DNA from: a virus
Strand: one strand, 5' to 3'
DNA: 64,000 nucleotides
IMG/VR virus record: IMGVR_UViG_3300043411_001575
Span: 96,001 to 160,000 of that record
Part shown: positions 4,309 to 19,702 of the stretch, piece after piece
Layout: each line of letters begins with the position of its first letter
How positions within the stretch are numbered: the stretch's first letter is position 1
Program-made: the position numbers and the translations under genes
Notes under the pieces: model-generated
The model's database searches: none
What the model was told of the DNA's origin: nothing
The model's input: only the letters and a program-made list of their open reading frames with translations

Positions 4309-4318
4309 CAATTACACA

Positions 4319-4415: not shown

Positions 4416-4489
4416 TAAGCTGGCTGCGGTTTATTAAACGAAAAGCTAAATACGAAGCACTAAAGAAAAGAATTTAAAAAAAGGAAGGG

Positions 4490-5319: not shown

Positions 5320-5445
5320 TAACGGTTTCGGGCTTGGCGAAGAAGCGGACTTATACCACTAAAGTTGATACGAAGAACCAATGTTGATGCTACTACAAAT
5401 GTTCATACGAAGCACTAAACCCGCTTTTTTGCCAATACTTTGTTA
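5320..5445. repeat. attC-like hairpin H7 (near-identical to H11)
   Basis: TTGGCGAAGAAGCGG / CCGCTTTTTTGCCAA. Confidence 0.85.
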
Positions 5446-5527
5446 TGCGTTCGCCTTATTTTTTCGTGTTGATTTTCAGCAAGTTAGAAACTATTTTAAA
5501 AATAAATCAAAAATACTTTGAAAAAAG

Positions 5528-5558
5528 TTTGCAGTTATCAAAATAGGTTGTATATTTG
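5528..5558 (+). promoter_or_regulatory. Bacteroidota-type promoter in cassette 8
   Basis: TTTG-N19-TATATTTG. Confidence 0.7.
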
Positions 5559-5587
5559 TACCAGATAACAATTAAAAAATAAACAAA

Positions 5588-5737
5588 ATGACAACAGCAA
5601 CAGTAAAATCAGAAGCAAAATGGAAAACACAATTTCAAATAATGTGGAATAACACACCAAAGAAATTAAGAAGAACCATCTCACAAGTAAACAACATTAA
5701 ATCACAAGCAAAATTATACGCAGCATTATGGATGTAA
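5588..5737 (+). CDS. small hypothetical protein (49 aa), cassette 8
   Basis: ATG at the position equivalent to 8218 in sister cassette 12. Confidence 0.6.
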   Translation: MTTATVKSEAKWKTQFQIMWNNTPKKLRRTISQVNNIKSQAKLYAALWM

Positions 5738-5949
5738 CAGCAAAAATGGAGCAGGGCAATATAAAAGCCCTGTTCCCCAACTTAGGAATGGAAGTAATTA
5801 CAAATGGCTGTGTTTGCCAAATTATTCAAATCTCATCTCAACAAATCAAAGTCGAAATAACCGAAGCAATAAACCCGATGTATAAAGTTGGAAATCAAAT
5901 TTGGGTTGATAGCTTTTTAATACCATCCGATGAAAAAGAAAAAAACTAA
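5728..5949 (+). CDS. hypothetical protein, cassette 8
   Basis: ORF overlapping both neighbours. Confidence 0.6.
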   Translation: MDVTAKMEQGNIKALFPNLGMEVITNGCVCQIIQISSQQIKVEITEAINPMYKVGNQIWVDSFLIPSDEKEKN

Positions 5950-6097
5950 TAGAGGTGGAGTTCGGGATGGGGCTGGTAGAAAAAAAGCAGACTACGAAAC
6001 AAAAACTATTTCCTTTCGTGTTCGTCTTGAATTTGTAGAACCGATTAAAAAGATGGTCAAGGATTATGTTTCGGAGCGTCTTAAAGGTGACGCATAA
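5930..6097 (+). CDS. small RHH-like DNA-binding protein (55 aa), cassette 8
   Basis: RGGVRDGAGRKKADYETKTISFRVRLEFVEPIKKMV; stop codon is the TAA of TAAC. Confidence 0.75.
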   Translation: MKKKKTNRGGVRDGAGRKKADYETKTISFRVRLEFVEPIKKMVKDYVSERLKGDA

Positions 6098-6214
6098 CGT
6101 TCGAGGGCTTGGCGAAGTGGCTGAACCTGAAGCTAAATAGAATTACTAAACTTAAAAATTAAGAACGAATGATTGATAGAATTACTGAACAGCCATTTTG
6201 CCAAACCCGTGTTA
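6095..6214. repeat. attC-like hairpin H8, contains the start codon of the next gene
   Basis: TTGGCGAAGTGGCTG / CAGCCATTTTGCCAA; same family as H17, H18, H25. Confidence 0.9.
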
Positions 6215-6939
6215 GTGGCAGTACTTTTGTGAATGCTGATTGCTTTGATGTTTTTCCTTTTATCGAGGATAAATCAATTGATGCTATTATTGCCGATTTG
6301 CCTTATGGAACTACTCAAAATAAATGGGATAGTATTTTGCCACTTAATAAACTTTGGAAAGAATACAAGCGGATTTTAAAAGATAGTGGTTGTGTTGTTC
6401 TTTTTGCTCAAACTCCATTTGACAAAGTACTTGGTTGTTCAAATTTAGATTGGTTAAAATACGAATGGATTTGGGATAAAAAACTTGGAAGTGGTTCTTT
6501 GAATGTAAAAAAAATGCCTTTAAAAAGACACGAAAATATATTAGTATTTAGCAAAGGGAAAACCACATATAATCCACAAATGACAAAAGGTAAATTTAGA
6601 AATAAAAGTACAAGTAAGCCATCATCTAATAAAGGTAATTACGGAGAAATAACACACCAAAAAGATAATTTTAATGATGATTATTATCCAACCACTATTT
6701 TAGAATTTACTAATGCAAATGTAAGAGCAAGGGTTCATCCAACTGAAAAACAATTATCTCTTATGGAATACCTTGTAAAAACATACACAAACGAAGGCGA
6801 TACAGTTTTAGATAATACAATGGGTTCAGGAACAACAAACTTGGCTTGTATCAAATTAAATCGCAAATCAATTGGAATTGAAAAGGAAAAACAATATTAC
6901 GATGTCGCTGTTCGGAGGGCTTCGGAGTATTGCCACTAA
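6169..6939 (+). CDS. DNA methyltransferase, beta class, cassette 9
   Basis: DLPY, HPTEK, DNTMGSGTT. Confidence 0.9.
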   Translation: MIDRITEQPFCQTRVSGSTFVNADCFDVFPFIEDKSIDAIIADLPYGTTQNKWDSILPLNKLWKEYKRILKDSGCVVLFAQTPFDKVLGCSNLDWLKYEWIWDKKLGSGSLNVKKMPLKRHENILVFSKGKTTYNPQMTKGKFRNKSTSKPSSNKGNYGEITHQKDNFNDDYYPTTILEFTNANVRARVHPTEKQLSLMEYLVKTYTNEGDTVLDNTMGSGTTNLACIKLNRKSIGIEKEKQYYDVAVRRASEYCH

Positions 6940-7024
6940 CGTTTTGCGTATATGAGAAGTGGCACTTGCACAAACTTGAAATTTAGCACAAATGTTTCTG
7001 TGCCATTTCTTATATACGCTGTTA
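6937..7024. repeat. attC-like hairpin H9
   Basis: identical to 3306-3393. Confidence 0.9.
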
Positions 7025-7121
7025 TGCCCTCGTTGCGGTAATTTTAGAACTAACTTCAATCGAAGCACTAAGGCATTTTTATTCTTTTTGTGGGAGGGTT
7101 GAAAACTTTTTTAAAATAACA

Positions 7122-7152
7122 CTTGCTAATTAGCAAAATATAGTTACTTTTG
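7122..7152 (+). promoter_or_regulatory. Bacteroidota-type promoter in cassette 10
   Basis: CTTG-N19-TACTTTTG. Confidence 0.6.
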
Positions 7153-7188
7153 TAACGCAATAATGCAGAAAACTAAAATTTAAAAACA

Positions 7189-7419
7189 ATGTCAAAAGCA
7201 GTTTATCAATTATTATTTGCTAATCAATCTGCCGATTCAAAGGTGCGATATGAATTAGTTAGAGAAACAAAAATGTATGTTTTTTTAAGAGAAATCACAA
7301 AAGAACCTCAATACATTTTTAGAGTTCACAAAAAAACATTAAGCGTTAAGGGTATCAAGGAAGGTAAAAATGGTTATCAATTTGACGTGGCTGACGCAAG
7401 AATTTTAAAAAAAGTATAA
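7189..7419 (+). CDS. hypothetical protein, cassette 10
   Basis: ORF after promoter. Confidence 0.7.
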   Translation: MSKAVYQLLFANQSADSKVRYELVRETKMYVFLREITKEPQYIFRVHKKTLSVKGIKEGKNGYQFDVADARILKKV

Positions 7420-7421
7420 CT

Positions 7422-7607
7422 ATGCGACTATCTGTAACAGAATACGCAAAACAGCTTGGTGTAACTCGTCAAGCTGTTTTGTTACAGATTAAAGAAAAAA
7501 GGTTGCCTAATAATGTTAAGTCTGAAAAAATTGGCAACACTTACTCTTTAACTGTGGGTGGGCAAAAAAAGAATAAAAATGCTTCCAATAAACTACAATC
7601 GAAGTAG
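7422..7607 (+). CDS. small HTH DNA-binding protein, cassette 10
   Basis: LSVTEYAKQLGVTRQAVLLQIK helix-turn-helix pattern. Confidence 0.75.
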   Translation: MRLSVTEYAKQLGVTRQAVLLQIKEKRLPNNVKSEKIGNTYSLTVGGQKKNKNASNKLQSK

Positions 7608-7625
7608 TATCGTAGCAATGGGGCA

Positions 7626-7715
7626 TAACGGTTGAGTGTATGAGTAGTGTGGCTTTGTACATACTCTCGACTTACAGATAAATTTATTTAGCCACATTAC
7701 TTATACACTTTGTTA
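7626..7715. repeat. attC-like hairpin H10
   Basis: AGTGTATGAGTAGTGTGGCT / AGCCACATTACTTATACACT. Confidence 0.88.
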
Positions 7716-7738
7716 TAGGTATGTAAAATTTACGGATT

Positions 7739-7933
7739 ATGAAACAGAAATATGTAAGATGCTTAGATAAGTTTGAAGTAGAATTAAAAGAAGGTGATAT
7801 TGTTGATGTTCAAATGGATGGTGAACATGAAATATATAAGAAAGAAGGTGGACAACTCTACTTCAAACCTTATGGAAAAGAAGATATGGTAAGTGCTTAC
7901 TTCTCAAATGATATGATTAAGGTAGAACGGTAG
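7739..7933 (+). CDS. small hypothetical protein with YopX-like motif, cassette 11
   Basis: LDKFEVELKEGDIV resembles the YopX D-K-x-G-x-E-I-Y-E-G-D-I motif. Confidence 0.6.
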   Translation: MKQKYVRCLDKFEVELKEGDIVDVQMDGEHEIYKKEGGQLYFKPYGKEDMVSAYFSNDMIKVER

Positions 7934-7949
7934 TAAATTTTATTACCTA

Positions 7950-8074
7950 TAACGGACGAGTATTGGCGAAGAAGCGGACTTTTACCACTAAAGTTGATAC
8001 GAAGAACTAATGTTGATGTTACTACAAACGTTCATACGAAGCACTAAAACCGCTTTTTTGCCAATACTTTGTTA
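7950..8074. repeat. attC-like hairpin H11
   Basis: AGTATTGGCGAAGAAGCGG / CCGCTTTTTTGCCAATACT. Confidence 0.88.
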
Positions 8075-8156
8075 TGCGTTCGCCTTATTTTTTCGTGTTG
8101 ATTTTCAGTAAGTTAGAAAATATTTTGAAAATAAATCCAAAATACTTTGAAAAAAG

Positions 8157-8187
8157 TTTGCAGTTATCAAAATAGGTTGTATATTTG
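8157..8187 (+). promoter_or_regulatory. Bacteroidota-type promoter in cassette 12
   Basis: TTTG-N19-TATATTTG, same as cassette 8. Confidence 0.7.
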
Positions 8188-8217
8188 TACTCAGATAACA
8201 ATTAAAAAATAAACAAA

Positions 8218-8463
8218 ATGAGAACATTGATTTTAGAAGCAAACGTAATTGAAACTAAAAACAGTTACACAATAGACACTACTATTGAAAAAGAATGGGG
8301 AATGAAAAAACCTATAATGAAAAAAATTCTTTACGGGATAGAAATTCAAAAGCCAACTGCATATAGAATTTATAATCATGGAAACGGTTCTTCAAGAACT
8401 TGGGTGTTTGGTGATTTGGAAATAAACCCAGATAGTAGAAGTGTTAAAAAATTGGCAAAGTGA
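8218..8463 (+). CDS. hypothetical protein, cassette 12
   Basis: ORF after promoter. Confidence 0.7.
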   Translation: MRTLILEANVIETKNSYTIDTTIEKEWGMKKPIMKKILYGIEIQKPTAYRIYNHGNGSSRTWVFGDLEINPDSRSVKKLAK

Positions 8464-8627
8464 AAAAGAAAAAAGAAACGAGAGGGGGCAAACGCTCCTT
8501 CTCTGGTCGCAGAAAAGCATCATACGAAACTAAAACTATTTCCTTTAGAGTTCGTATTGAATTTGTCGAACCGATTAAAAAGATGGTTAAGGATTATGTT
8601 TCGGAGCGTCTTAAAGGTGACGCATAA
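8460..8627 (+). CDS. small RHH-like DNA-binding protein (55 aa, GTG start), cassette 12
   Basis: C-terminal half nearly identical to 5930-6097; GTGA overlap with the upstream stop. Confidence 0.7.
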   Translation: MKKKKETRGGKRSFSGRRKASYETKTISFRVRIEFVEPIKKMVKDYVSERLKGDA

Positions 8628-8713
8628 CGTTTTGCGTGTATGAGCAGTGGCACTTATACAACGCTTGAATTTGACCACAAAACTTCCTGTGCCATTGCTT
8701 ATACACGCTGTTA
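8625..8713. repeat. attC-like hairpin H12
   Basis: GCGTGTATGAGCAGTGGCAC / GTGCCATTGCTTATACACGC. Confidence 0.9.
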
Positions 8714-8750
8714 GCAGTAGTACGGATTATTAACGAATAAATTAAATAGA

Positions 8751-9545
8751 ATGAGTAATAAAATAGATTTAGATAAATATTATACACCATTGGATAAAGC
8801 TAAATATTGTATTGACAAGGTGTATGAAATTATCGGAGAGAATAATATAAGCGAAGCTATTGAACCAAGCGCAGGTAACGGTAGTTTTAGCTTACAAGTG
8901 CCGACTACTTGTTGGGCTTATGATATTGAACCTGAACACGAAAGTATTATAAAGCAAGATTTCTTGACGTTGGATGTTGATTATCTTTATGGTAGGTTAA
9001 TAATTGGAAACCCACCATTCGGCAGTAGAATGAATTTAGCACAAAAATTTTTCAAAAAAAGTATTGAATTAGGTGACTATGTTGCATTTATATTACCAAT
9101 TAGTCAATTGTGGAATACTAACAGTTTATTTGAATTTGATTTGATTCATAGTGAAGATTTAGGTAAAGTAAAATATAGTGATAGAGATTTACATTGTTGC
9201 TTTAACATTTATAAAAGACCTGAAATTGGATTGAATAACAGACCAAAAAACAAACTAAACTCTGTTAGTATAACAAGACAGGATAGCAAAGGATATGATA
9301 CTATCAATGATTTTGATATAAGAATGTGTTATTGGGGAAATGGGAGTGCTGGAAAAATACTAAAAGAAGGTGAAACTTATAGTGCGGAATACAAGATAAA
9401 AGTAAATGATGAATTTAGAAAAGACGTAATAGATGTTCTTTCTAATATTAATTGGTTTGATGAACTGAATTGTATTGCTATGTTAAAAATTCAACAATTT
9501 CACATAATCAATGTACTGAAAAAGTATGTGCCAAACATTGATTAA
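8751..9545 (+). CDS. N6-adenine DNA methyltransferase, gamma class, cassette 13
   Basis: YYTP, motif I EPSAGNGSF before motif IV GNPPFG. Confidence 0.88.
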   Translation: MSNKIDLDKYYTPLDKAKYCIDKVYEIIGENNISEAIEPSAGNGSFSLQVPTTCWAYDIEPEHESIIKQDFLTLDVDYLYGRLIIGNPPFGSRMNLAQKFFKKSIELGDYVAFILPISQLWNTNSLFEFDLIHSEDLGKVKYSDRDLHCCFNIYKRPEIGLNNRPKNKLNSVSITRQDSKGYDTINDFDIRMCYWGNGSAGKILKEGETYSAEYKIKVNDEFRKDVIDVLSNINWFDELNCIAMLKIQQFHIINVLKKYVPNID

Positions 9546-9568
9546 TAGCACTAACGTAGTATTACTGC

Positions 9569-9693
9569 TAACGGTTACGGCTTTGTGCAGTGTGGGAAAT
9601 TGAAAAACAAAATTTGAATTATGCAGAAAAGTTTATTTGAAAACGAAATGTTGAATATAGTACAAAAGCCCACATTGCACAAAGCCGATGTTA
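9569..9693. repeat. attC-like hairpin H13, contains the start codon of the next gene
   Basis: CGGCTTTGTGCAGTGTGGG / CCCACATTGCACAAAGCCG. Confidence 0.9.
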
Positions 9694-10424
9694 GCCGCAG
9701 TACATTCTATCAGGGTGATTGTCTTGTGGAAATGGATAAGATTTCCGATAAAAGTGTGGATATGATTTTATGTGATTTGCCTTATGGAACAACAGCTTGC
9801 AAATGGGATAGTGTCATTCCTTTTGAGCCACTTTGGAAGCAATATGAAAGGATTATAAAAGATAACGGGGCAATAGTTTTGACAGCTTCGCAACCATTTA
9901 CAACAATATTAATAAGCAGCAATATAAAGTTATTCAGGTATGAATTAATTTGGCAAAAGGATAAGGCAAGTGGGTTTTTAAATGCTAATAAAATACCATT
10001 GAAAGCACACGAAAACGTTTTAGTATTTTACAAAAAGTTACCTACATATAATCCGCAAAAAACCATTGGTGGGCTGCAAAGGAAAAGGACAAGGAAAAAA
10101 CCAACGCATGAGGTTTTAGGTAAAACTGGTGTAAATGAAAAACACGTTATTTGGCAAGATAACACAAGATACCCTATAAGTGTTTTAGAATTTGATGTAG
10201 ATACTATTAACCACAGTTTGCACCCTACTCAAAAACCAATAGCATTAATGGAATATTTAATAAAAACCTACACCAACGAAGGAGAAACAGTTTTAGATAA
10301 CTGTATGGGTTCAGGAACAACTGGTGTGGCTTGTAAAAAAACAGGTAGGCACTTTATCGGAATAGAAAAGGATGAAAAGTATTTTGAAATTGCCGTTAGC
10401 AGGGTGTCTGCGTATTGCGGCTAA
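9621..10424 (+). CDS. DNA methyltransferase, beta class, cassette 14
   Basis: GDCL, DLPY, HPTQKP, DNCMGSGTT. Confidence 0.9.
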   Translation: MQKSLFENEMLNIVQKPTLHKADVSRSTFYQGDCLVEMDKISDKSVDMILCDLPYGTTACKWDSVIPFEPLWKQYERIIKDNGAIVLTASQPFTTILISSNIKLFRYELIWQKDKASGFLNANKIPLKAHENVLVFYKKLPTYNPQKTIGGLQRKRTRKKPTHEVLGKTGVNEKHVIWQDNTRYPISVLEFDVDTINHSLHPTQKPIALMEYLIKTYTNEGETVLDNCMGSGTTGVACKKTGRHFIGIEKDEKYFEIAVSRVSAYCG

Positions 10425-10536
10425 CGTTTTGCAGATAGGCGTTGTTGCCTCACAAATGATTGATTGAAACACTAAATTTAATAATATGGGAAATGATAAT
10501 TTAAAAACGGAAAGCAATAACGCCAATGTGCTGTTA
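10422..10536. repeat. attC-like hairpin H14, contains the start codon of the next gene
   Basis: GGCGTTGTTGC / GCAATAACGCC. Confidence 0.8.
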
Positions 10537-10827
10537 GGTGCTGGGTTTGTTTACTTGGTAGAATGTTCATCAGGAAGTTGGGATAGTTACCATTGGTGGG
10601 TTGGAGGAATATTTGAAAAGCAAGAAGATGCTGATAAATATGCACAAAGCTTGAATGATGAAAACAAACGATTAAAAGAGGTTGAATGCTCAATAAAAAC
10701 ACCATTTGAAGATATGACTGATGAAGAAGAAACGGAGTATTACAGGTGGTGGAATGGTAACAATGATGCTATGGAATGGAATGGTGCTAAAGTTAAGCAG
10801 TACCCCATAAACAAACCTTGCACCTAA
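10486..10827 (+). CDS. hypothetical protein, cassette 15
   Basis: ORF fills the cassette; stop codon in TAAC. Confidence 0.75.
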   Translation: MGNDNLKTESNNANVLLGAGFVYLVECSSGSWDSYHWWVGGIFEKQEDADKYAQSLNDENKRLKEVECSIKTPFEDMTDEEETEYYRWWNGNNDAMEWNGAKVKQYPINKPCT

Positions 10828-10912
10828 CGATTGGGTGTATGAGAAGGTTTGCTTAGATGAACTTTTAAATTTACACAGAATTTTATAGCAAACTTTCTTA
10901 TACACCTTGTTA
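10825..10912. repeat. attC-like hairpin H15
   Basis: GGTGTATGAGAAGGTTTGCT / AGCAAACTTTCTTATACACC. Confidence 0.88.
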
Positions 10913-10975
10913 TGTACAGGCACGGTAAATTACCGATGAACTTAATTAAATGAACGAAACTAATAATTTTTAAAA

Positions 10976-11716
10976 ATGTGGGATGGCAAATATGCTTTTG
11001 AAAAAAGCAAAATAATACAAGGAGATAGTTTGGATAAAATAAAATATATACCTAATGGCAGTATTGACTTAATTGTAACTGACCCACCGTATAAAATGAC
11101 GAAACAAGGTAATTCTTGCAGACCAAATTATATGAAAAGTGGAATGGGTGAAAACTTATTTGATGGTGAATTACCAAATACAAAAGAATGGATGAAACTT
11201 TGTTTTGATAAACTAAAAGACGATGCCCATTTCTATGTATTTACCAATATAAATAGTTTGCACGAATACCTTGATGTTGCAAAAGAATGTGGATTTAAAC
11301 TACATAATATTATAAGTATGATTAAAGATACCAAAATGCCTAATAGATGGTATTTAAAATACACTGAATTTGTATTGTTTTTTAGAAAAGGTAAAGCGTT
11401 TCCAATAAACGATATGACAAGTAGAGATTATGAATTTGTTGAAACACCAACATTAAAAAATGGCAAAATACATATATCACAAAAACCATTGAATTTTATT
11501 GAAAAACTAATAACAAATTCATCAAATGAAGGTGAAATATGTTTGGATTTATTTAGTGGAAGCGGAACACTTGCAGAAGCCTGTATAAATACAAATAGAG
11601 ATTTCATTATTATAGAGAAAAACCCAAATGACTTTGAAAAAGGCAAAGAAAGGGTGGGAAAAATTTTTAAAAATTATGGAATTAACATACAACCTTTAAT
11701 CGAAGCACAAATGTAG
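10976..11716 (+). CDS. DNA methyltransferase, beta class, cassette 16
   Basis: TDPPY, HISQKP, DLFSGSGT. Confidence 0.92.
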   Translation: MWDGKYAFEKSKIIQGDSLDKIKYIPNGSIDLIVTDPPYKMTKQGNSCRPNYMKSGMGENLFDGELPNTKEWMKLCFDKLKDDAHFYVFTNINSLHEYLDVAKECGFKLHNIISMIKDTKMPNRWYLKYTEFVLFFRKGKAFPINDMTSRDYEFVETPTLKNGKIHISQKPLNFIEKLITNSSNEGEICLDLFSGSGTLAEACINTNRDFIIIEKNPNDFEKGKERVGKIFKNYGINIQPLIEAQM

Positions 11717-11726
11717 TGCTTGTACA

Positions 11727-11813
11727 TAACGTTTTCGGGCTTGGCGAAGGTGGGCTTGTAGGATGCTCAATTTTAGCACAATGTGTCTGCCCACTTTTGC
11801 CAAACCCGTGTTA
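11727..11813. repeat. attC-like hairpin H16
   Basis: TTGGCGAAGGTGGGC / GCCCACTTTTGCCAA. Confidence 0.88.
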
Positions 11814-11910
11814 TATGAAGTGCCGACTTATTAAGCAGAATTTTAAATTGAAACTATAAACAGAAAAACAAAAAAGAAAAAAAGCGTAGGGAATTTTAAA
11901 AACAAACAAT

Positions 11911-12177
11911 ATGGAAAAGAATTTTATTGAAAAAGCAGAAAAAGAAATTGGTAGAAAATTTGGTTTTTTCATCAGATGTGATGATAAAAACAAACCAACA
12001 GAAGTATTAACCGATATGTACTTTGAACTATGGGAAACAGAAAAGATGAACGAGATTTTATCTTTATGCGAAACACATAATCTTAAATACGATTTTGGTT
12101 TAGAAAGTTTTGATACCAAAATAGATGCTATTGAACAAGAAATATGTATTGTTTCAACTAATTGCGAAAATTCATAA
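11911..12177 (+). CDS. hypothetical protein, cassette 17
   Basis: ORF 1 nt upstream of the MTase ATG. Confidence 0.65.
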   Translation: MEKNFIEKAEKEIGRKFGFFIRCDDKNKPTEVLTDMYFELWETEKMNEILSLCETHNLKYDFGLESFDTKIDAIEQEICIVSTNCENS

Positions 12178-12178
12178 A

Positions 12179-12922: not shown

Positions 12923-12997
12923 AAGTGTGGTGGCTTTTTTCTTTTTGTTTTTCATTAACGGAACTTCAATTGGAAACGGTCAGCAAGGCATTTCATA

Positions 12998-13117
12998 TAA
13001 CGTTCGAGGGCTTGGCGAAGTGGCTGAACCTGAAGCTAAATAGAATTACTAAACTTAAAAATTAAGAACGAATGATTGATATAATTACTGAACAGCCATT
13101 TTGCCAAACCCGTGTTA
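12998..13117. repeat. attC-like hairpin H17, contains start codon
   Basis: near-identical to H8. Confidence 0.9.
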
Positions 13118-13881
13118 GTGGCAGTACTTTTGTGAATGCTGATTGCTTTGATGTTTTTCCTTTTATCGAGGATAAATCAATTGATGCTATTATTTGCGAT
13201 TTGCCCTATGGAACAACTCAATGTAAATGGGATAGCATTATTAATTTAGATTTGATGTGGACGCAATACAACAGAATAATAAAAGATAACGGCATTTTTA
13301 TATTATTTGCAGATGAGCCTTTTACAAGCATATTAATAAATAGTAACATTAAAAATTTTAAGCAAAGAATAACTTGGGATAAACAAATAGCAGGAGGTCA
13401 TTTAAACGCTAAAAAAATGCTATTGAAAAGAACTGAGGATATATGCTTATTTTCAAATGTTAAAAATGGAAAATATACATACAATCCTATTTTAAAAGAT
13501 AAGGATTTTAAAAACATAAGAGATAGAAACGGAGAAAACAGAAAAGAGTTTAAAGGCGGTTATGTAGGGAAACACAATAGTACGTTGAGTAAAGAGCATA
13601 ACAATAAAAAAAGTTACCCAGATAATTTAATTTCCTTTTCAGCAAGAAAAGGCGATTGTAACCCTATAAATAGATTACACCCAACACAAAAACCACTTGA
13701 ATTGATGGAATATCTTATAAAAACCTATACTAATGAGGGCGATTTGGTTTTAGATAACACAATGGGTTCTGGAACAACAATTTTAGCTGCTATAAAAAAT
13801 AATAGAATTGGTATAGGAATTGAAAAGGAAAAACAATATTATGATGTCGCTGTTCGTAGGGCTTCGGAGTATTGCCACTAA
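13072..13881 (+). CDS. DNA methyltransferase, beta class, cassette 18
   Basis: DLPY, HPTQKP, DNTMGSGTT. Confidence 0.9.
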   Translation: MIDIITEQPFCQTRVSGSTFVNADCFDVFPFIEDKSIDAIICDLPYGTTQCKWDSIINLDLMWTQYNRIIKDNGIFILFADEPFTSILINSNIKNFKQRITWDKQIAGGHLNAKKMLLKRTEDICLFSNVKNGKYTYNPILKDKDFKNIRDRNGENRKEFKGGYVGKHNSTLSKEHNNKKSYPDNLISFSARKGDCNPINRLHPTQKPLELMEYLIKTYTNEGDLVLDNTMGSGTTILAAIKNNRIGIGIEKEKQYYDVAVRRASEYCH

Positions 13882-13998
13882 CGTTATCGGGCTTGGCGAA
13901 GTGGCTGAACCCGAAGCTAAATAGAATTACTAAACTTAAAAATTAAAAACGAATGTCAAATAGAATTACAGAACAGCCATTTTGCCAAACCAGTGTTA
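13879..13998. repeat. attC-like hairpin H18, contains start codon
   Basis: H8 family. Confidence 0.9.
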
Positions 13999-14711
13999 GT
14001 GGCAGTACTTTTGTAAATGCTGATTGCTTTGATGTTTTTCCTTTTATTGAGGACAAATCAATTGATGCTATTATTTGCGATTTGCCTTATGGAACTACTG
14101 CTTGTAAGTGGGATACAATTATACCATTTGAGCCGCTATGGGAGCAGTACAAGCGAGTGATTAAACCTAATGGTGCGATAGTGCTGTTTAGCAAAGAGCC
14201 ATTTACGTGCATATTGAGAACAAGTGAAATTAAAATTTTTAAGCAACCTCTTATTTGGGATAAGGTTAATTCAGATAACCCTATGCAGGCAAAAAGAAGA
14301 CATCTAAACACTACGGAGGATATTTCTATCTTTTACAAATCTCAATGTACTTATAACCCACAAGGTCTTATAAAGTCAAATATAAAAAAGGGAGGGAAGC
14401 AAGGGATAATGATTGATAGTAGTGGTAAGGAAAAAGAACAATATATTCAAGAGAATACCAATTATCCGAAAAATATATTAGTGTACCCGATAGAAAGAAA
14501 GGCGGTTCATCCAACTCAAAAACCCGAAGCACTCCTGCAATACTTAGTCAAAACCTACACTAACGAAGGCGATATAGTCTTAGATAACTGTATGGGTTCA
14601 GGTACAACAAATCTTGCTTGTTTAAAATTAAATCGCAAATCAATTGGAATAGAAAAGGAAAAACAATATTACGATGTCGCTGTTCGTAGGGCTTCTGAGT
14701 ATTGCCACTAA
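13953..14711 (+). CDS. DNA methyltransferase, beta class, cassette 19
   Basis: DLPY, HPTQKP, DNCMGSGTT. Confidence 0.9.
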   Translation: MSNRITEQPFCQTSVSGSTFVNADCFDVFPFIEDKSIDAIICDLPYGTTACKWDTIIPFEPLWEQYKRVIKPNGAIVLFSKEPFTCILRTSEIKIFKQPLIWDKVNSDNPMQAKRRHLNTTEDISIFYKSQCTYNPQGLIKSNIKKGGKQGIMIDSSGKEKEQYIQENTNYPKNILVYPIERKAVHPTQKPEALLQYLVKTYTNEGDIVLDNCMGSGTTNLACLKLNRKSIGIEKEKQYYDVAVRRASEYCH

Positions 14712-14765
14712 CGGTATCCGTATAAGGGAAGTGCGAGGAACGAGCATTTACTTTATACGGTGTTA
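14709..14765. repeat. attC-like hairpin H19 (shortest, 57 bp)
   Basis: CCGTATAAGG / CTTTATACGG. Confidence 0.85.
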
Positions 14766-14856
14766 GCAAAGTGCGTTGGGATTGTGTGTCGGCTCGTTCC
14801 AAAACCATTTATTTTCTTTTTTTTGGGGAGGTTTTGAAAACTTTTTTACTAAAATA

Positions 14857-14887
14857 CTTGCTAAATGACAATTTATATTTATCTTTG
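14857..14887 (+). promoter_or_regulatory. Bacteroidota-type promoter in cassette 20
   Basis: CTTG-N19-TATCTTTG. Confidence 0.6.
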
Positions 14888-14918
14888 AACCATATTAATA
14901 ATCTAAAAACAAAACAAA

Positions 14919-15230
14919 ATGATTTACAAAAAAACACACTATGATAAAAAGGCTTTAAACAGCCACGTTTCAAAAATAAAAGATGCAGGAGGAAATGCAA
15001 TAGTAGATGGATTATCGGTTAGATATTTCTATCCATCCAATACCATTGGTGAAATTAGATTAAAGCATAAGAGTTGGAAGAAAACAGAAAGACAAGAAGT
15101 TTTGTTTATTGTTTTAGTTTCTGAAAAAGATAAAACGCCATACTATTCAGCAATGTATTTCCCGAAATGGGTTGAAATAGGAGGTGTTTATGGAAACAAA
15201 AATGACATAACAATAATCGAAAAGTTTTAA
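14919..15230 (+). CDS. hypothetical protein, cassette 20
   Basis: ORF after promoter. Confidence 0.7.
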   Translation: MIYKKTHYDKKALNSHVSKIKDAGGNAIVDGLSVRYFYPSNTIGEIRLKHKSWKKTERQEVLFIVLVSEKDKTPYYSAMYFPKWVEIGGVYGNKNDITIIEKF

Positions 15231-15232
15231 CT

Positions 15233-15388
15233 ATGAAACTGTCTGTAACAGAATATGCAAAACAGCTTGGCGTAACTCGTCAAGCCGTTTTGTTACAAAT
15301 TAAAGAAAAAAGGTTGCCTAAAAATGTGAAGGTTGAAAAAATCGGAAATACTTATTCTTTAACTGTGGGTGGGCAAAAAAGAAAATAA
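15233..15388 (+). CDS. small HTH DNA-binding protein (51 aa, not in ORF track), cassette 20
   Basis: MKLSVTEYAKQLGVTRQAVLLQIKEKRLP, paralog of 7422-7607. Confidence 0.75.
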   Translation: MKLSVTEYAKQLGVTRQAVLLQIKEKRLPKNVKVEKIGNTYSLTVGGQKRK

Positions 15389-15407
15389 ATGGTTTTGGAA
15401 TGTTTGC

Positions 15408-15497
15408 TAACGTATGGTGCTATGAGCAGGTTTGCCTTGCAGAAATGTTCAAATTTAGCACTAATGTTATTGGCAAACTTGCTTATAGCACGTGTTA
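15408..15497. repeat. attC-like hairpin H20
   Basis: GTGCTATGAGCAGGTTTGCC / GGCAAACTTGCTTATAGCAC. Confidence 0.88.
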
Positions 15498-15533
15498 GCG
15501 GTAGTTTATTTTTCAAAAATTAAAATTAAAAAT

Positions 15534-15992
15534 ATGGGAACACAAGTAGTAGGAGAAAGTAACAGCGTTGAGTATAGCACTCCGTTGAAAATAGTACAGC
15601 CATTGATAAACGAATTTGGCTTAACAAGAGATGTTTGTGCAAGTGAATTAAACCACAAACTACCCGATTATTGGACAAAAGAAGATAATTCACTTGCTAT
15701 GAATTGGAAAGGTAATTGTTGGATGAACCCACCATTTAGCAGAGATTTGAATAAGTGGGTAAAGAAAGCGTGTAATGATGCTGAAAGGTTTGGAGGAACG
15801 AAAGTTTGTTTAATACCTGTAAGAAGCAATACAAAATGGTGGGCGGAAGTTTGTGTAAAAGCAGAAATTCGTTTTATCAATGGCGAAGTAAATTTTAATG
15901 ATGAAGAACGTGGACTTTGGTTGCCGATGTGTATTATCATTTTCGGTGAGAAGGCAAAGGTTGGCACGTTCTCTGTCTTAAATTACCGCTAA
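15534..15992 (+). CDS. phage Dam-like N6-adenine methyltransferase, cassette 21
   Basis: YSTP, DVCAS, WMNPPFS, LIPVRSNTKWW, EIRFI. Confidence 0.88.
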   Translation: MGTQVVGESNSVEYSTPLKIVQPLINEFGLTRDVCASELNHKLPDYWTKEDNSLAMNWKGNCWMNPPFSRDLNKWVKKACNDAERFGGTKVCLIPVRSNTKWWAEVCVKAEIRFINGEVNFNDEERGLWLPMCIIIFGEKAKVGTFSVLNYR

Positions 15993-16062
15993 CGTTTTGC
16001 AGCTAACAGAAGGCGGCTTTTTAGCAAACTTAGTACTTGCCGCTTTTTGTTAGCTGCTGTTA
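15990..16062. repeat. attC-like hairpin H21
   Basis: GCAGCTAACAGAAGGCGGC / GCCGCTTTTTGTTAGCTGC. Confidence 0.88.
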
Positions 16063-16120
16063 GTGGACTGTTAAATTATTAAAAAAGAAAAAAGGAGGGG
16101 TGCGAGGGCATCTAAACATA

Positions 16121-16957
16121 ATGGACAAGAAGAAACTTTTAATTGCTTTTAGTGGTGGAGAAACATCTGCATTTATGGCTCAATGGTTATGGAAACATAA
16201 ACAAGGTGAATACGAAATGTTATTTGCTTTTGCTAATACTGGGGTTGAGAATGAAGAAACTTTAAACTTTGTGCATAAATGCGAAGTTGAATTTGGTATA
16301 AATGTTAATTGGTTGGAAGCAGTAATAGACCAAGAGAAAGGGAAAGGCACAAGGCATAAGATTGTTGATTACAAAACAGCAAGTAGAAACGGACAACCAT
16401 TTGAGGAACTGATAAAGAAATACGGTTTACCAAACCAACAGCGATTTCACTGCACAAGGGAGTTAAAAAATAATACATTGATTTCATTTGCAAAAAGTAT
16501 TTGGGGAAAGGAAAAGTATTATTTAGCAATAGGAATTAGAGTAGATGAATTTGATAGGATGAATGATAAATTTAAAGAGTTGAGAATTGTTTATCCGTTA
16601 ATTTCAGAAATTCCAATGACAAAGCCAAAGATTAATTTTTGGTGGAAACAACAACCGTTTAGATTAGAATTAAAAGGTTATCAAGGGAATTGTGTTACTT
16701 GCTACAAAAAAAGTGATAAAAAATTGTTTCAGATAGCTAAAGAAAATCCAAGTGCATTTGATTTCTTTGATAGAATGGAAGAACAATATGGAGAAGGTAA
16801 GTATCAATTTTTTAGGCAGAACCGAACAGCTAAACAAATTATGGAACAAGCTAAAGAATGGAATGGCAATGTAACCGATGACGCACAAAATGTTACAATA
16901 CAAACAGATTTATTTAGCGAAAGTTGTGAAGCATTTACAAGCGATTGCGGTGTTTAA
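16121..16957 (+). CDS. PAPS reductase-like (adenine nucleotide alpha hydrolase fold) protein, cassette 22
   Basis: PP-loop FSGGETSA, FANTG, CTRELK, IGIRVDE, YPL, NCVTC. Confidence 0.85.
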   Translation: MDKKKLLIAFSGGETSAFMAQWLWKHKQGEYEMLFAFANTGVENEETLNFVHKCEVEFGINVNWLEAVIDQEKGKGTRHKIVDYKTASRNGQPFEELIKKYGLPNQQRFHCTRELKNNTLISFAKSIWGKEKYYLAIGIRVDEFDRMNDKFKELRIVYPLISEIPMTKPKINFWWKQQPFRLELKGYQGNCVTCYKKSDKKLFQIAKENPSAFDFFDRMEEQYGEGKYQFFRQNRTAKQIMEQAKEWNGNVTDDAQNVTIQTDLFSESCEAFTSDCGV

Positions 16958-17026
16958 CCTTTTCACAGTTTTGAAAAAACTGAAAGAGTGCGTGGGCTTT
17001 TTCTTTTTTAATAATTTAATTGCCAC

Positions 17027-17152
17027 TAACGGTTCGCAGGTATATTTAGTTGCGGACTTAGTAACACAAAACTTTAAATTTAGAAGAAATGAAGAAAGAA
17101 GAACAAAACTCGAATGAACCACAAAAACCGCAATTGAATATACCTGCTGTTA
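17027..17152. repeat. attC-like hairpin H22, contains start codon
   Basis: GCAGGTATATTTAGTTGCGG / CCGCAATTGAATATACCTGC. Confidence 0.9.
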
Positions 17153-17445
17153 GTTGCAGTGTTGTTCATTGCAAGAAAGCACCTTATGATGTTTATATTG
17201 GAAGACCAAGCAAATGGGGTAATCCATTCACACACATAAAAGACGGTAAAACACTTGCAAAACATATTGTAGGTAGTAGAGATGAAGCAGTCGAAGCATA
17301 TCTTGAATGGATTACCAACGGAGAAGGTAAACATTTGATGAGTGATTTACACGAATTGAAAGATAAGGTGCTTGGTTGTTGGTGTCATCCACAATCTTGT
17401 CACGGAGATGTACTTTCGGAGTTGGTTGCTAAACATTGCAACTAA
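17089..17445 (+). CDS. DUF4326-like protein, cassette 23
   Basis: VYIGRPSKWGNPF..LGCWCHPQSCHGDVL. Confidence 0.85.
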   Translation: MKKEEQNSNEPQKPQLNIPAVSCSVVHCKKAPYDVYIGRPSKWGNPFTHIKDGKTLAKHIVGSRDEAVEAYLEWITNGEGKHLMSDLHELKDKVLGCWCHPQSCHGDVLSELVAKHCN

Positions 17446-17567
17446 CGTTTTGCAGGTATATTTAGTGCCGAATTTAAAAACGAAAAATATGAATTTTATA
17501 CAAAAGTTATTTAAAAGCAGAAAGGTTAATGAACCGATGAACTCGGCATTGAATATACCTGTTGTTA
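17443..17567. repeat. attC-like hairpin H23, contains start codon
   Basis: CAGGTATATTTAGTGCCGA / TCGGCATTGAATATACCTG. Confidence 0.9.
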
Positions 17568-17791
17568 TACCTCGTTTATCTTCTGATTGGATAAAATTTG
17601 AGGATGAAAAACCACCACACGAAGTAGTATTAGCTGCTTGCGATACTTATGATTGTGGATGGACTATGGATACTGTTTGGTGGTATGAAGATAAGCAATG
17701 TTGGATGGTTACTGGTGCAGTTAAAAGTACAGAAGCACATTTACCATACACACATTGGCGTAAATTACCACCATTTCCAAATGAGGTATAA
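17489..17791 (+). CDS. DUF551-like protein, cassette 24
   Basis: WIKFEDEKPP..VLA..THWRKLPPFP. Confidence 0.75.
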   Translation: MNFIQKLFKSRKVNEPMNSALNIPVVIPRLSSDWIKFEDEKPPHEVVLAACDTYDCGWTMDTVWWYEDKQCWMVTGAVKSTEAHLPYTHWRKLPPFPNEV

Positions 17792-17914
17792 CGTATTGGT
17801 GCTATACGAAGGAGGCGATTATTAGCACTAAATTTGATGCGGAGTACAAATGTTTGTTTAACCACAAATGTTTCTGCGGAGTACCAAACCGCCTCTTTTG
17901 TATAGCACGTGTTA
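17789..17914. repeat. attC-like hairpin H24
   Basis: GTGCTATACGAAGGAGGCG / CGCCTCTTTTGTATAGCAC. Confidence 0.88.
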
Positions 17915-17978
17915 TACGCTGGCACGGTTGATTAAACGAGAAACTTAAATTGAAACACAAAACAAAATTTTTATTAAA

Positions 17979-18764
17979 ATGAGCGAGGGCAAAAAAGAAA
18001 TATTATTAGGAGATTGTTTGGAACTTATGAAGGATATACCAAACGGAAGTATTGATATGATACTTTGTGATTTACCATACGGAACAACTGCTTGTAAATG
18101 GGATAGTGTAATACCTTTTGAACCACTTTGGAAAGAATATGAAAGGATTATAAAGACCAATGGTGCTATTTTATTGTTTGGAACACAACCATTCACAACA
18201 GAACTAATATTGAGCAATAGAAAATTGTTTAAGTATGATATGGTTTGGTGCAAAGACAAACCTGCTGACTTCGGAAATGGCAATATAAAACCATTAAGAT
18301 ACCACGAAACAATTTGTGTATTTTATACCAAAACGCCAACATACAATAAGCAATTTGAAAGCAGAAAAGGAACTGGCTATTCAAGGGCTAAATATCCTGT
18401 AAATTACATAAACAATTCAGAGCATAAATTTGGAATGAAAGATGGTTCTTTTGATTATGCAAATAAAGACAGAATGATTGGAACTGTAATAGATATTACA
18501 ACTGGTGCAAGAGGTAGCATAAAACACCCAACAGTAAAGCCCGTTCCTTTATTTGAACATTTAATCAAAACATATACCAACGAAGGTGAATTGGTTTTAG
18601 ATAATACAGCAGGAAGCGGAACAACTGCAATTGCTTGTTTGAATACTAAAAGGCAATTTATAGTAATGGAAAAAGAACAAAAGTATTACGATATGATTTT
18701 AAAAAGGGTGGGAGATTTTAATAAAAATTTTGAACCGCAAACTCTCTTTGGAAACGAAATGTAG
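17979..18764 (+). CDS. DNA methyltransferase, beta class, cassette 25
   Basis: GDCL, DLPY, HPTVKP, DNTAGSGTT. Confidence 0.9.
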   Translation: MSEGKKEILLGDCLELMKDIPNGSIDMILCDLPYGTTACKWDSVIPFEPLWKEYERIIKTNGAILLFGTQPFTTELILSNRKLFKYDMVWCKDKPADFGNGNIKPLRYHETICVFYTKTPTYNKQFESRKGTGYSRAKYPVNYINNSEHKFGMKDGSFDYANKDRMIGTVIDITTGARGSIKHPTVKPVPLFEHLIKTYTNEGELVLDNTAGSGTTAIACLNTKRQFIVMEKEQKYYDMILKRVGDFNKNFEPQTLFGNEM

Positions 18765-18774
18765 TGCTTGCGTA

Positions 18775-18894
18775 TAACGGTATCGGGCTTGGCGAAGTGG
18801 CTGAACCGAATGTTTGATAGAAGCACAAAACTTAATAATTAAAAACGAATGATTGATAGAATTACTGAACAGCCATTTTGCCAAACCCGTGTTA
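18775..18894. repeat. attC-like hairpin H25, contains start codon
   Basis: H8 family stems. Confidence 0.9.
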
Positions 18895-19643
18895 TGTGCA
18901 GGGCGGTTGATAACCTTGAACTCCTTTTGTCGCAACCTGATGAAAGTGTAGATTTGATTTACTGTGATATTCTTTATGGAACGGGTAGGAATTTCGGTGA
19001 TTACCAAGACTTAAAACCAATTAGAAGCGAAATAGAAAGCCACTACCTACCAAGACTTATTGAAATGAAACGAGTTTTAAAAAGTACAGGTAGTATTTAT
19101 TTGCAAATGGATACACGAATAAACCATTGGATGCGCATTTTGATGGATGATGTTTTTGGGTATGAAAATTTCCGCAATGAAATAGTATTTGGATATAATG
19201 GGGGTGGTGTTTCAAAGAATTGTTATCCTAAAAAACACGACATAATCTTGTTTTATTCTGTTAGTGATAAATACTATTTTAATAACGAAAAGAAACCATA
19301 CTCCGCTTTAAGTTCACAAAACTTATTGTGGAAACATAGGAATAAAAAAAGACTTGATGAACTTAATGATGGCACACCTGTAACCGATGTATGGACTGAT
19401 TTGAAGTTTAAAATAAATTACCAAGAGGAAGAATATACAGGATATGCTACCCAAAAAACAAAAGAATTATTGAGCCGTATTGTTTTAGCTTCCACAAATG
19501 AAGGCGATACAGTTGCAGATTATTATTTAGGTAGTGGCACAACGGCAGTAGTTTGTAAGGAACTGAACCGAAATTTTATAGGTTGCGATATTAATCCAAA
19601 AGCTATTGAAATAACAAATGCTCGTTTAGATGCACTTTCGTAG
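18849..19643 (+). CDS. DNA methyltransferase, beta class, cassette 26
   Basis: DLIYCDILY (variant motif IV), FRNEIV, YATQK, DYYLGSGTT. Confidence 0.85.
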   Translation: MIDRITEQPFCQTRVMCRAVDNLELLLSQPDESVDLIYCDILYGTGRNFGDYQDLKPIRSEIESHYLPRLIEMKRVLKSTGSIYLQMDTRINHWMRILMDDVFGYENFRNEIVFGYNGGGVSKNCYPKKHDIILFYSVSDKYYFNNEKKPYSALSSQNLLWKHRNKKRLDELNDGTPVTDVWTDLKFKINYQEEEYTGYATQKTKELLSRIVLASTNEGDTVADYYLGSGTTAVVCKELNRNFIGCDINPKAIEITNARLDALS

Positions 19644-19702
19644 CTTTGCACATAACGTGTATTTAATGGAATGGAGTGTCAAAATCAATTAGTTACATAA
19701 TA
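19640..19702. other. putative attI-like primary recombination site
   Basis: Last TAACG (19653-19657) is followed by the integrase gene instead of a hairpin and TGTTA. Confidence 0.55.

Follow-up and report, generated by a model that had tools for sequence, protein, structure and literature searches.

An integron-like array of 40 hairpin sites in a Flavobacteriia-type phage, with each hairpin ahead of its gene

A 170-kb phage of Flavobacterium/Flavobacteriia type carries about 40 swappable cassettes in an array of integron-like build, the cargo being mostly DNA methyltransferases. We think it probable that its 40 hairpin sites, one hairpin-less site and an Xer-like tyrosine recombinase together form an integron-like cassette platform, which would work through folding of the coding strand and insertion at the terminal site.

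Results

The window, i.e. the whole stretch of 64,000 nucleotides that was analysed (positions 96,001 to 160,000 of the phage record IMGVR_UViG_3300043411_001575), covers the final part, 24 of 40 co-oriented hairpin sites, of an array that starts at genome position 77,777, 18,223 bases ahead of the window. Every site runs from TAACG through a 4-nt bulge, a stem of ~20 bp, a loop and the returning stem to a T and GTTA. These 40 imperfect inverted repeats, TAAC(G)...(T)GTTA, with stems of 17-25 bp and lengths of 57-127 nt, satisfy the core-box criterion of integrons, and their stems are preserved over 11 sequence families of hairpins. At a single threshold, 37 hairpin sites were found within the 38-kb array as compared to 1 in the remaining 130 kb of the genome, a clustering far above chance.

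Hairpin sites and cargo occupy positions 1-4415 (+ strand), upstream of the region treated here, with sites at (-73)-14, 867-957, 1428-1517, 1738-1827, 3306-3393 and 4319-4415. There follow, likewise on the + strand, H22 (5320-5445), behind which lie a promoter region of Bacteroidota type and small genes, H23 (6095-6214), H24 (6937-7024), H25 (7626-7715), H26 (7950-8074), H27 (8625-8713), H28 (9569-9693), H29 (10422-10536), H30 (10825-10912), H31 (11727-11813), H32 (12998-13117), H33 (13879-13998), the short 57-nt form H34 (14709-14765), H35 (15408-15497), H36 (15990-16062), H37 (17027-17152), H38 (17443-17567), H39 (17789-17914) and, as the last of the array, H40 (18775-18894). The loop of H23 contains a ribosome site and the ATG (6169) of a methyltransferase gene (6169-6939), and the loops of H28, H37 and H40 contain the ATG of a methyltransferase (9621-10424), a DUF4326 gene (17089-17445) and a further methyltransferase (18849-19643), respectively. 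At H24, the TAA of the TAAC box serves as stop codon of the preceding gene.

A preliminary description of this DNA had proposed that the hairpins travel with the downstream gene, and cassette differences, homology block ends and paralogue pairs all agree with it. Within the genome, its paralogous cassettes 9, 18 and 19 (C23, C32 and C33 in our numbering) indeed share one family of upstream hairpins (at 6095, 12998 and 13879; identity 0.90-0.99, with 0.99 between H32 and H23), while their downstream hairpins (at 6937, 13879 and 14709) belong to three different families; cassettes 8 and 12 behave alike, as their upstream hairpins H22 and H26 are 0.92 identical and the downstream ones 0.54. Overall, 12 of 23 pairs had cargo homology that carried on into the upstream hairpin, and none of 16 showed such a continuation into the downstream one. 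For 5'-homologous cargo pairs the upstream hairpins had a mean identity of 0.77 versus a background of 0.58 (0 of 10,000 permutations as high), and for the 16 3'-homologous pairs the mean identity of the downstream hairpins was 0.545; these pairs are not independent, having been drawn from few paralogue families. Furthermore, the two ends of a cassette are complementary: when the 8 nt preceding the downstream TAAC are set against the 8 nt that follow the cassette's own GTTA, 5.5 of 8 positions pair (in-array neighbour, 2.8/8; shuffles, 2.76 +/- 0.21), and position 7 of this pairing is a conserved T.G wobble which forms in the circle form only. The array thereby meets a second integron criterion, namely core-box pairing completed by a cassette's own two ends, but not that of the classical gene-then-attC unit, as here the hairpin comes first, then the gene, and the crossover falls on the box at the hairpin's 5' side.

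The same boundaries were observed across ~80 viral loci and in cultured phages. The right ends of homology blocks fell on a TAAC box 84 times and on a GTTA box in 0 of 645 cases; block starts fell on a TAAC box 113 times and on a GTTA box 27 times, the chance expectation being ~0.4% of block ends per box. Exact junctions were found where L086 and L088 have two units in common, where L091 has one unit more than L090, and where L052 has four more than L050. Flavobacterium phage isolates that are 99.8-100% identical nevertheless differ by whole cassettes (mumin6-1/6-4, sniff9-1/9-2, snork6-1/6-2 and tooticki/mumin/filifjonk), each time with the bounds TAAC|G…TAAC. Every resolved cassette difference between related phages has TAAC at both ends and a single hairpin, which is located 5'. 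The base following TAAC is always G in hairpin sites and G, A or T at the terminal site, so the crossover must lie within or just after TAAC, in line with the position near TAA/C inferred earlier. On the 5' side of the cargo, homology can break at the GTTA box as well (11 of 23 pairs, besides the 27 block starts), which is unexplained by a single crossover point.

The two strands of the sites are not equivalent. As claimed in the preliminary description, stem mismatches are mostly G.T on the plus strand, where the minus strand has C.A, and the coding strand folds better: a strand-neutral scorer counted 85 G.T/T.G mismatches on the + strand (77 with G on the 5' arm) versus 24 C.A/A.C, and with DNA parameters the + strand folds more stably at 38 of the 40 sites (mean fold energy -15.1 versus -12.8 kcal/mol for the - strand; Wilcoxon 5e-8). 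Conserved positions outside Watson-Crick pairing are without exception wobbles on one strand, and the extra unpaired bases sit on the side of the cleaved box (5' arm). Hairpin orientation always matches that of its gene, and in the few inverted sites of other loci the asymmetry reverses along with the gene. Wobble bias, bulge position and fold energies all favour the coding strand. An identical strand bias would be yielded by G.U pairing in mRNA.

No hairpin is present 3' of the last gene of the array. An attI-like terminal site (19653-19702, +) follows, consisting of TAACG (19653-19657) and 45 nt up to the ATG of the recombinase, with TAAC placed 46 nt ahead of that ATG; that it is devoid of a hairpin, as stated previously, was borne out, since the segment 19645-19705 folds no better than shuffles on the two strands (z +1.2 and +0.9). 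In relatives L001-L003 the sequence after this TAAC is conserved and that before it differs. The preliminary description had suggested asking whether integrase-proximal cassettes vary most. Of 6 resolved cassette differences, 3 lie exactly at TAAC|TACAAT, the terminal hairpin-less site of Muminvirus/Lillamyvirus, and the other 3 are internal; none of the 6 can be polarised as gain or loss. A count over 46 records gave 46 with the distal cassettes c1-c4, 16 with c8-c9 and 37 with c10. We observe variability at the terminal site, from which growth of the array there, as opposed to mere variation, is an inference.

Directly after the array, on the strand common to all cargo genes, lies a gene for an Xer/IntI-like tyrosine recombinase without the IntI-specific insertion (19703-20572, +). 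Its match to TIGR02249 is split in two pieces and scores 154.8 bits against a cut-off of 265, i.e. the IntI-domain criterion is not met, and 26 of its residues stand opposite 69 residues of VchIntIA (2a3v). In sequence it is matched best by XerA of Pyrococcus abyssi (4a8e, 1.4e-44) and by the NCBIfam model recomb_XerA_Arch (206 bits), and its nearest solved relatives are Xer recombinases; the Xer cut-offs are likewise not reached (XerA_Arch, 206 vs 220 bits; XerD, 171 vs 330; XerC, 163 vs 335). The order of array, lone TAAC, ~45-65 nt and same-strand recombinase recurs in L003, L045, L055, L058, L060 and L083 (36-79% identity) and in L128-L131. While the linkage of array and recombinase gene is thus a matter of observation, catalysis by the adjoining enzyme is inferred, as there are no activity data. 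Muminvirus arrays vary although the Muminvirus genomes encode no recombinase, and the same absence applies to Lillamyvirus.

Discussion

Judging from the junctions, a cassette begins at the C of a TAAC box, continues with the G, the 4-nt bulge and the hairpin and, after the cargo gene(s), closes on the TAA of the following TAAC; with these bounds the hairpin precedes its gene. Strand exchange is placed inside TAAC, probably at TAA|C. The coding (+) strand would act as the ‘bottom’ strand in integron terms, carrying the cleaved AAC in its 5' arm and folding with G.T wobbles where the - strand has C.A mismatches; use of this strand in folded, single-stranded form is, like the direction of growth, inferred. 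Excision would proceed by recombination between two hairpin sites, and insertion or exchange presumably takes place mainly at the terminal site adjoining the recombinase, i.e. at the 3' end of the gene array. The proposal made from the sequence alone, that the minus strand reads as an integrase-attI-attC order in which every gene is inverted, is backed by our comparative data.

Could the array nevertheless follow classical polarity, with each gene travelling with the hairpin behind it, crossover at GTTA and folding of the minus strand? On the + strand, TAAC...GTTA does look like an attC top strand with its R''...R' order, it was in that sense that HattCI called one such site of phage P12002L (PMC9892861), and the bulge would then fall on the arm which carries the extrahelical bases in classical attC sites. 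However, no block ended at a GTTA box, no cargo homology ran 3' into a downstream hairpin, every resolved difference comprised a hairpin with its downstream gene, and the last gene lacks a following hairpin; we can see hardly any room for this arrangement, which the junction data contradict. Alternatively, the hairpins might mainly act at the RNA level for the downstream gene (as a 5' leader, in processing or in translation control), the genes moving by other means and the recombinase being unrelated. The sense-strand G.U bias, the ribosome sites and start codons within several loops and the constant common direction of hairpin and gene, even when inverted, would be consistent with such a role, but it leaves unaccounted for why the junctions of cassette differences are exact and inside a 4-base box, why cassette ends are complementary in a manner sensible only for an excised circle, and why synteny with the recombinase is conserved over 36-79% identity. 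Moreover, the sites of bacterial genome G002 follow their genes, with the wobble strand antisense. As a full explanation we hold it to be very improbable; an additional RNA-level role of the hairpins is not excluded.

A more serious objection is that the recombinase might use duplex or cruciform DNA and not a folded single coding strand, in which case cassettes and break point would remain as described and the wobble bias would have a different origin, e.g. mRNA structure. The IntI insertion is tied to the handling of folded attC and Xer recombinases act on duplex sites, and our enzyme lacks the former and finds its nearest solved relatives among the latter. In addition, the bottom strand of classical attC reportedly has its extrahelical bases on the other arm from the one that bears the bulge here (VchIntIA-VCR structure and Bouvier et al. 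2009), so that the analogy to IntI is inexact. On the other hand, the DNA 5' of TAAC is cargo-specific and hence no conserved inverted repeat surrounds the break in duplex form, the stems were kept through 11 sequence families, and the conserved non-Watson-Crick positions, including the circle-only T.G, are all wobbles on one strand. We consider duplex use unlikely and retain folding of the coding strand as the preferred reading.

More speculatively, and with much more doubt than confidence, we envisage that the phage lineage flipped the site system as a whole relative to its genes, with the recombinogenic hairpin placed on the coding (non-template) strand before the gene, so that transcription or replication drives its folding and the hairpin doubles as a start module. 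If true, folding and exchange would be driven by transcription displacing the non-template strand or, alternatively, by the G-rich + strand lying exposed when it serves as lagging-strand template, and the hairpin element would also provide the gene with its ribosome site, ATG and first residues. Such a gene-capture device would be unlike integrons in both its activity and its expression logic.

These arrays bring integron logic to virulent and large phages of Flavobacteriia, with a simpler recombinase, opposite gene polarity and a methyltransferase-rich cargo, which plausibly serves as counter-measure to host restriction. The authors of the Flavobacterium isolates tied methyltransferase content to plating efficiency (PMC7077304); with near-identical isolates differing by single cassettes, the system can be tested in the laboratory with existing strains. 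Integron-finding software that relies on the IntI domain and on classical orientation will overlook such arrays or assign them the wrong direction.

Comparison with known systems

Integrons are the textbook gene-capture system and are defined by the extra domain of IntI, gene-then-attC cassettes and a promoter at attI. Our array shares with them, and especially with sedentary chromosomal ones such as the Vibrio cholerae superintegron, a long, co-oriented and promoter-poor cassette array with imperfect hairpin sites and AAC/GTT cores, a single break point in the core, a site completed by the cassette ends only in the circle, a hairpin-less, presumably primary site adjoining the start of a tyrosine recombinase gene, and homogeneous site families within one array. 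It differs in that it resides in a phage, that its recombinase lacks the IntI-specific insertion and falls below the cut-offs of IntI models, and that the hairpin precedes the gene, which makes the coding strand the ‘bottom’ strand. Its asymmetry, too, is of a different kind, consisting of a 4-nt bulge beside the cleaved box and fixed G.T wobbles and not of extrahelical bases on the other arm. Finally, the criterion of an attI-end promoter reading into the cassettes is not met: all cargo genes face the terminal site and the recombinase, and thus lie out of reach of any Pc-type promoter at attI.

CALINs, clusters of at least 2 attC-like sites without an integrase, do not match the window either, since in it the recombinase directly follows the array; the related Muminvirus arrays would suit the definition. 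For arrays of this kind, the literature searched noted only attC-like clusters in Polaribacter phage P12002L. There, P12002L_attC1, located between two methyltransferase genes, is exactly this site type, and P12002L_attC2 is the hairpin-less terminal site of the P12002L array. Qi et al. 2023 regarded the two as divergently pointing classical attC sites and used IntI1 alone in their tests, where attC1 gave no verified recombinants and attC2 did (PMC9892861); they describe no cognate recombinase, no unit of hairpin and downstream gene and no reversed polarity. Xer systems (XerC/D and archaeal XerA) provide the best sequence matches, a similar protein size and the same lack of an extra domain, but in place of a dif-like 28-bp duplex site, none of which was noticed here without a dedicated search, we find hairpins of 57-127 nt in arrays.

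The closest bacterial counterpart, in a comparison that rests on one genome, is G002, in which three loci with a recombinase (P0118) 46-47% identical to ours likewise have TAAC/GTTA as cores, one of them flanked by a 4-5-nt bulge, together with a stem of ~21-24 bp, a break at G|TT adjoining the recombinase gene and, as judged by eye, complementarity of a cassette's own ends. In contrast to the phage array, their recombinase is found upstream of the array and points into it, the cargo consists of restriction-modification and other defence genes, and the gene comes before the hairpin, with the wobble-rich strand antisense, i.e. in classical polarity. As the same site type thus occurs in classical order, the polarity of the phage array is a real inversion.

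The array and its hairpin sites

The window covers bases 96,001-160,000 of a single virus record of 169,658 bp with about 31% G+C, and almost all genes from the window start to 19.6 kb lie on the + strand. This region contains N6_N4_Mtase genes at 3433, 4490, 6169, 9621, 10976, 12125, 13072, 13953, 17979 and 18849 and, within the array, a Dam-like methyltransferase at 15492; a PAPS-reductase-like gene and a DUF4326 gene are interspersed among the array methyltransferases, and a tyrosine recombinase gene (19703-20572), on the same + strand as the array genes, follows directly after the array. A tail-fibre-like gene and many small co-oriented genes are also encoded in the window, as is a 389-aa protein (29757-30926, +) matching PHROG transposase families (phrog_506, 6e-108), which looks like an insertion-sequence gene within the phage genome. 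A megablast search of cultured phages gave no match to 21 kb of the window.

Sites were located with a strand-neutral detector for TAAC...GTTA around an ungapped stem, with G.T and C.A given the same score, which replaced an energy-only TAAC...GTTA scan that was too noisy. It returned 40 sites in a single orientation (H1-H40, each followed by the cargo of the same number, C1-C40) between genome positions 77,777 and 114,894, 24 of them in the window and 19 within 5320-19702. At a single threshold, 37 sites fell into the 38-kb array versus 1 in the other 130 kb of the genome. Each site opens with TAACG and roughly 4 unpaired bases, continues with a 17-25-bp stem that encloses a 10-85-nt loop, and closes with GTTA, mostly preceded by a T, with a possible wobble between the G after TAAC and the T before GTTA. 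The spacer measures 4-6 nt on the TAAC side and 0-3 nt on the GTTA side at every site, and a T stands 7 bases before TAAC in 40 of 40. Stem mismatches on the + strand amount to 85 G.T/T.G versus 24 C.A/A.C over the 40 sites; in 77 of the 85 the 5' arm carries the G, and they cluster at stem positions 8-14. The + strand fold is the more stable at 38 of the 40 sites (DNA parameters), and in example folds the TAACG/TGTTA box is closed with a 4-nt bulge on the + strand, not on the - strand. The preliminary description had stated that stem mismatches are mostly G.T on the plus strand and that the coding strand folds better, and both points are borne out.

Some features of the array and window stand apart. 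The cargo C13 (genome 89,924-94,116; window -6076 to -1884) extends over 4.2 kb with no hairpin detected and includes internal segments with homology to end sequences of several other cassettes, so that degenerate or undetected sites are probable within it. The 150 nt after H22 and H26 (5446-5590 and 8075-8217) are 96% identical and contain the TTTG...TAnnTTTG motif typical of Bacteroidota promoters, so that a promoter is part of some cassettes. Regions of + strand genes have positive GC skew, and both the skew and the gene direction change at about 39 kb (1-39000 versus 39000-64000); the G-rich strand is the hairpin-folding strand of the array, and replication and transcription effects are inseparable in these data.

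The mobile unit

Two sets of paralogous cassettes within the genome have similar upstream hairpins. The cargoes C23, C32 and C33 have upstream hairpins 0.90-0.99 identical and downstream hairpins of three different families, and C22 and C26 have upstream hairpins 0.92 identical versus 0.54 downstream, which is the pattern that had been claimed for them from inspection alone (as cassettes 9, 18 and 19, and 8 and 12). Among all array pairs in which homology touches a cargo end, the upstream hairpins were likewise similar in 12 of the 23 with 5'-end homology, the mean upstream identity being 0.77 versus a background of 0.58 (0 of 10,000 permutations reached 0.77), whereas 3'-end homology went with a similar downstream hairpin in none of 16 (mean 0.545). 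These pairs come from few paralogue families and are not independent; the asymmetry is nonetheless complete.

The methyltransferase at 6169-6939, used as query, retrieved 80 viral loci. Most of them have sites of this kind, in which the bulge lies 5' on the sense strand and G.T exceeds C.A; the few oppositely oriented sites (L041, L076) have a neighbour gene that is likewise on the other strand, and their wobble bias is reversed with it. We classified all ends of homology blocks between different loci (at least 200 bp and at least 85% identity), each box zone representing 0.36% of positions. The 634 left (start) ends comprised 113 at the TAAC box, 27 at the GTTA box, 42 inside a hairpin and 452 elsewhere, and the 645 right (end) ends 84, 0, 48 and 513, respectively; shared blocks therefore begin with a hairpin and end just before the next one. 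Individual loci behave likewise: two units common to L086 and L088 have different surroundings and are identical from the TAACG before the hairpin to the next TAACG, and one additional unit in L091 relative to L090 is bounded in the same way. Elsewhere in L091 (4978-10010), a 2,453-bp unit between hairpin sites is present in three tandem copies with 100% identity, a cassette amplification inside the array.

Closely related isolates of the cultured Flavobacterium phages Muminvirus and Lillamyvirus, compared over flanks 99.8-100% identical, differ by whole cassettes. One internal cassette is additional in mumin6-1 relative to mumin6-4 (gp008) and in sniff9-1 relative to sniff9-2, one terminal cassette in snork6-1 relative to snork6-2, and three internal and one terminal in filifjonk (L052) relative to mumin (L050), while tooticki has a different terminal cassette, a C5 methyltransferase. 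All of these differences have TAAC at both bounds and one hairpin, at the 5' end. Cargo-only transposon-like units with flanking 12-bp inverted repeats, which we had considered, were rejected because every cassette difference contains exactly one hairpin. The isolate differences, the right block ends and the lack of any downstream-hairpin homology show that the cassette is a hairpin plus its downstream cargo, and the proposal of the preliminary description that hairpins travel with the downstream gene is upheld.

Break point and implied circular intermediates

At the Muminvirus/Lillamyvirus terminal site, TAAC is followed by TACAAT and cassettes start with G directly after TAAC, which assigns the G to the hairpin side; the base preceding TAAC goes with the upstream cargo. 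Exchange thus takes place within TAAC or at its 3' edge. A crossover near TAA/C had been inferred earlier: the break in TAAC stands and TAA/C is compatible with it, but these data do not resolve that exact position.

Between the 8 nt that precede a cassette's closing TAAC and the 8 nt that follow the GTTA of the same cassette, 5.5 of 8 positions form Watson-Crick pairs, versus 2.8 for the array-adjoining cargo end and 2.76 +/- 0.21 for shuffles, and position 7 of this pairing is a T.G wobble in 29 of 40 cassettes. Such own-end complementarity, likewise shown for integron cassettes, implies that cassettes pass through a circle whose core box is lengthened to about 12 bp. The T.G wobble of this pairing lies on the + strand and is present in no form but the circle, which favours a function in DNA. 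We discarded it as a discriminator of polarity, since both polarity models predict it; it supports site-specific recombination and circles only.

Terminal site, recombinase and proposed array growth

The last TAACG (19653-19657) is without a partner, and neither strand of 19645-19705 folds better than shuffled sequence, in line with the earlier remark that the integrase-proximal TAACG has no hairpin. From this TAAC to the ATG, the sequence is conserved between the window and the relatives L001-L003 (recombinases 76-79% identical), in which the preceding cargo differs. When an 18-mer of this attI-like region was compared with viral contigs, 27 loci were returned, one contig being relevant and the rest chance matches. 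The recombinase gene is demonstrably syntenic with the array: the order of array, lone TAAC, 45-65 nt and same-strand recombinase recurs in five viral loci with recombinases only 36-42% identical (L045, L055, L058, L060, L083), and in four further metagenomic contigs (L128-L131). The enzyme has a Phage_integrase domain and XerA-type proteins as best matches, and reaches the cut-off of no curated family. Its alignment to VchIntIA is split in two, 26 residues standing against 69 in IntI; the IntI insertion is therefore absent.

Growth at the 3' end, as proposed initially, should make the integrase-proximal cassettes the most variable. The six resolved isolate differences are evenly split, with three precisely at the terminal site and three internal ones. 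Counted across 46 Muminvirus/Lillamyvirus records, the distal mumin6-1 cassettes c1-c4 are present in all 46 at 99% identity or more, c5-c7 are fully covered in 8, c8-c9 are found in 16 and the terminal c10 in 37. Most of the variation thus lies toward the terminal end. These data show that the terminal site is recombinationally active and takes part in exchange, although gains and losses are indistinguishable and these phages have no recombinase of their own.

Proposed mechanism

The break in TAAC, the asymmetry of the sites and the better folding of the coding strand are demonstrated here; the enzymatic steps are inferred. The recombinase would recognise the + strand in folded form, binding the core box and the stem with its wobbles, and might cleave the 5' arm at TAA/C in the way that IntI cleaves its bottom strand. 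Circles would then be excised through recombination of one hairpin site with another, and the recombinase may insert them at the terminal site. Breaks of homology at the GTTA box before the cargo (11 of 23 pairs, 27 block starts), from which it follows that the hairpin is replaceable while the cargo stays, are left unexplained by this mechanism.

Comparison with related systems

Our literature searches found no description of this system. An attC cluster without integrase, containing methyltransferase genes, was reported in Polaribacter phage P12002L (Qi et al. 2023, PMC9892861), and from the primer table of that study P12002L_attC1 is a site of the present type, for which no verified recombination with IntI1 was obtained (PMC9892861). 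P12002L_attC2 is the array's hairpin-less terminal sequence, occurring twice in the P12002L genome; it gave recombinants with attI1, none of them for the strand that the authors called top (PMC9892861). The bottom strand in their orientation is the gene-sense strand, and the result agrees with our reading, albeit with a foreign enzyme. In the P12002L record (L118), the same hairpin-less sequence of about 65 nt follows TAAC at 29150-29270 and 37180-37330, behind gp35 and gp53, and there are therefore seemingly two short arrays, each ending in that site. Among Muminvirus isolates, methyltransferase content varies and correlates with plating efficiency, hairpins not being mentioned (Nilsson et al. 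2020, PMC7077304).

Homologues of the recombinase numbered 4,201 at E <=1e-30 among the candidates scored, and as a single-protein query against bacterial genome contigs it gave one distant match only. Two groups of bacterial loci were set aside. Homologues with 36-49% identity occur in 39 of 81 genomes of one bacterial family (that of G001), with open frames mostly of about 380 aa, and the nine chromosomal loci inspected for these longer homologues had no clear site array within 10 kb and one weak site; they are probably another recombinase group and were excluded as evidence. A Flavobacterium sp. chromosome (L124) has three phage-orientation sites (1413-5262) and a recombinase 48% identical (10001-10828); it was not used either, as transporter genes separate the recombinase from the sites 5-9 kb upstream of it and the layout is unclear.

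One bacterial genome, G002, encodes three identical recombinase copies, 46-47% identical to the phage enzyme, each with restriction-modification and further defence genes behind it on the same strand; downstream of two copies, sequence identity runs to a GTT and is lost after it. Its hairpins have the same architecture but stand behind the genes, and at 4 of 4 sites both the bulge and the wobble-rich strand are antisense. Relative to G002, and as yet to this one genome only, the sites of the phage array are flipped with respect to all genes. At the three G002 loci (L126, L127, L153), a short recombinase heads each array, and the cargo includes type IIG and type III enzymes, GmrSD and orphan methylases. 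These defence-gene arrays mirror the methyltransferase stock of the phage arrays.
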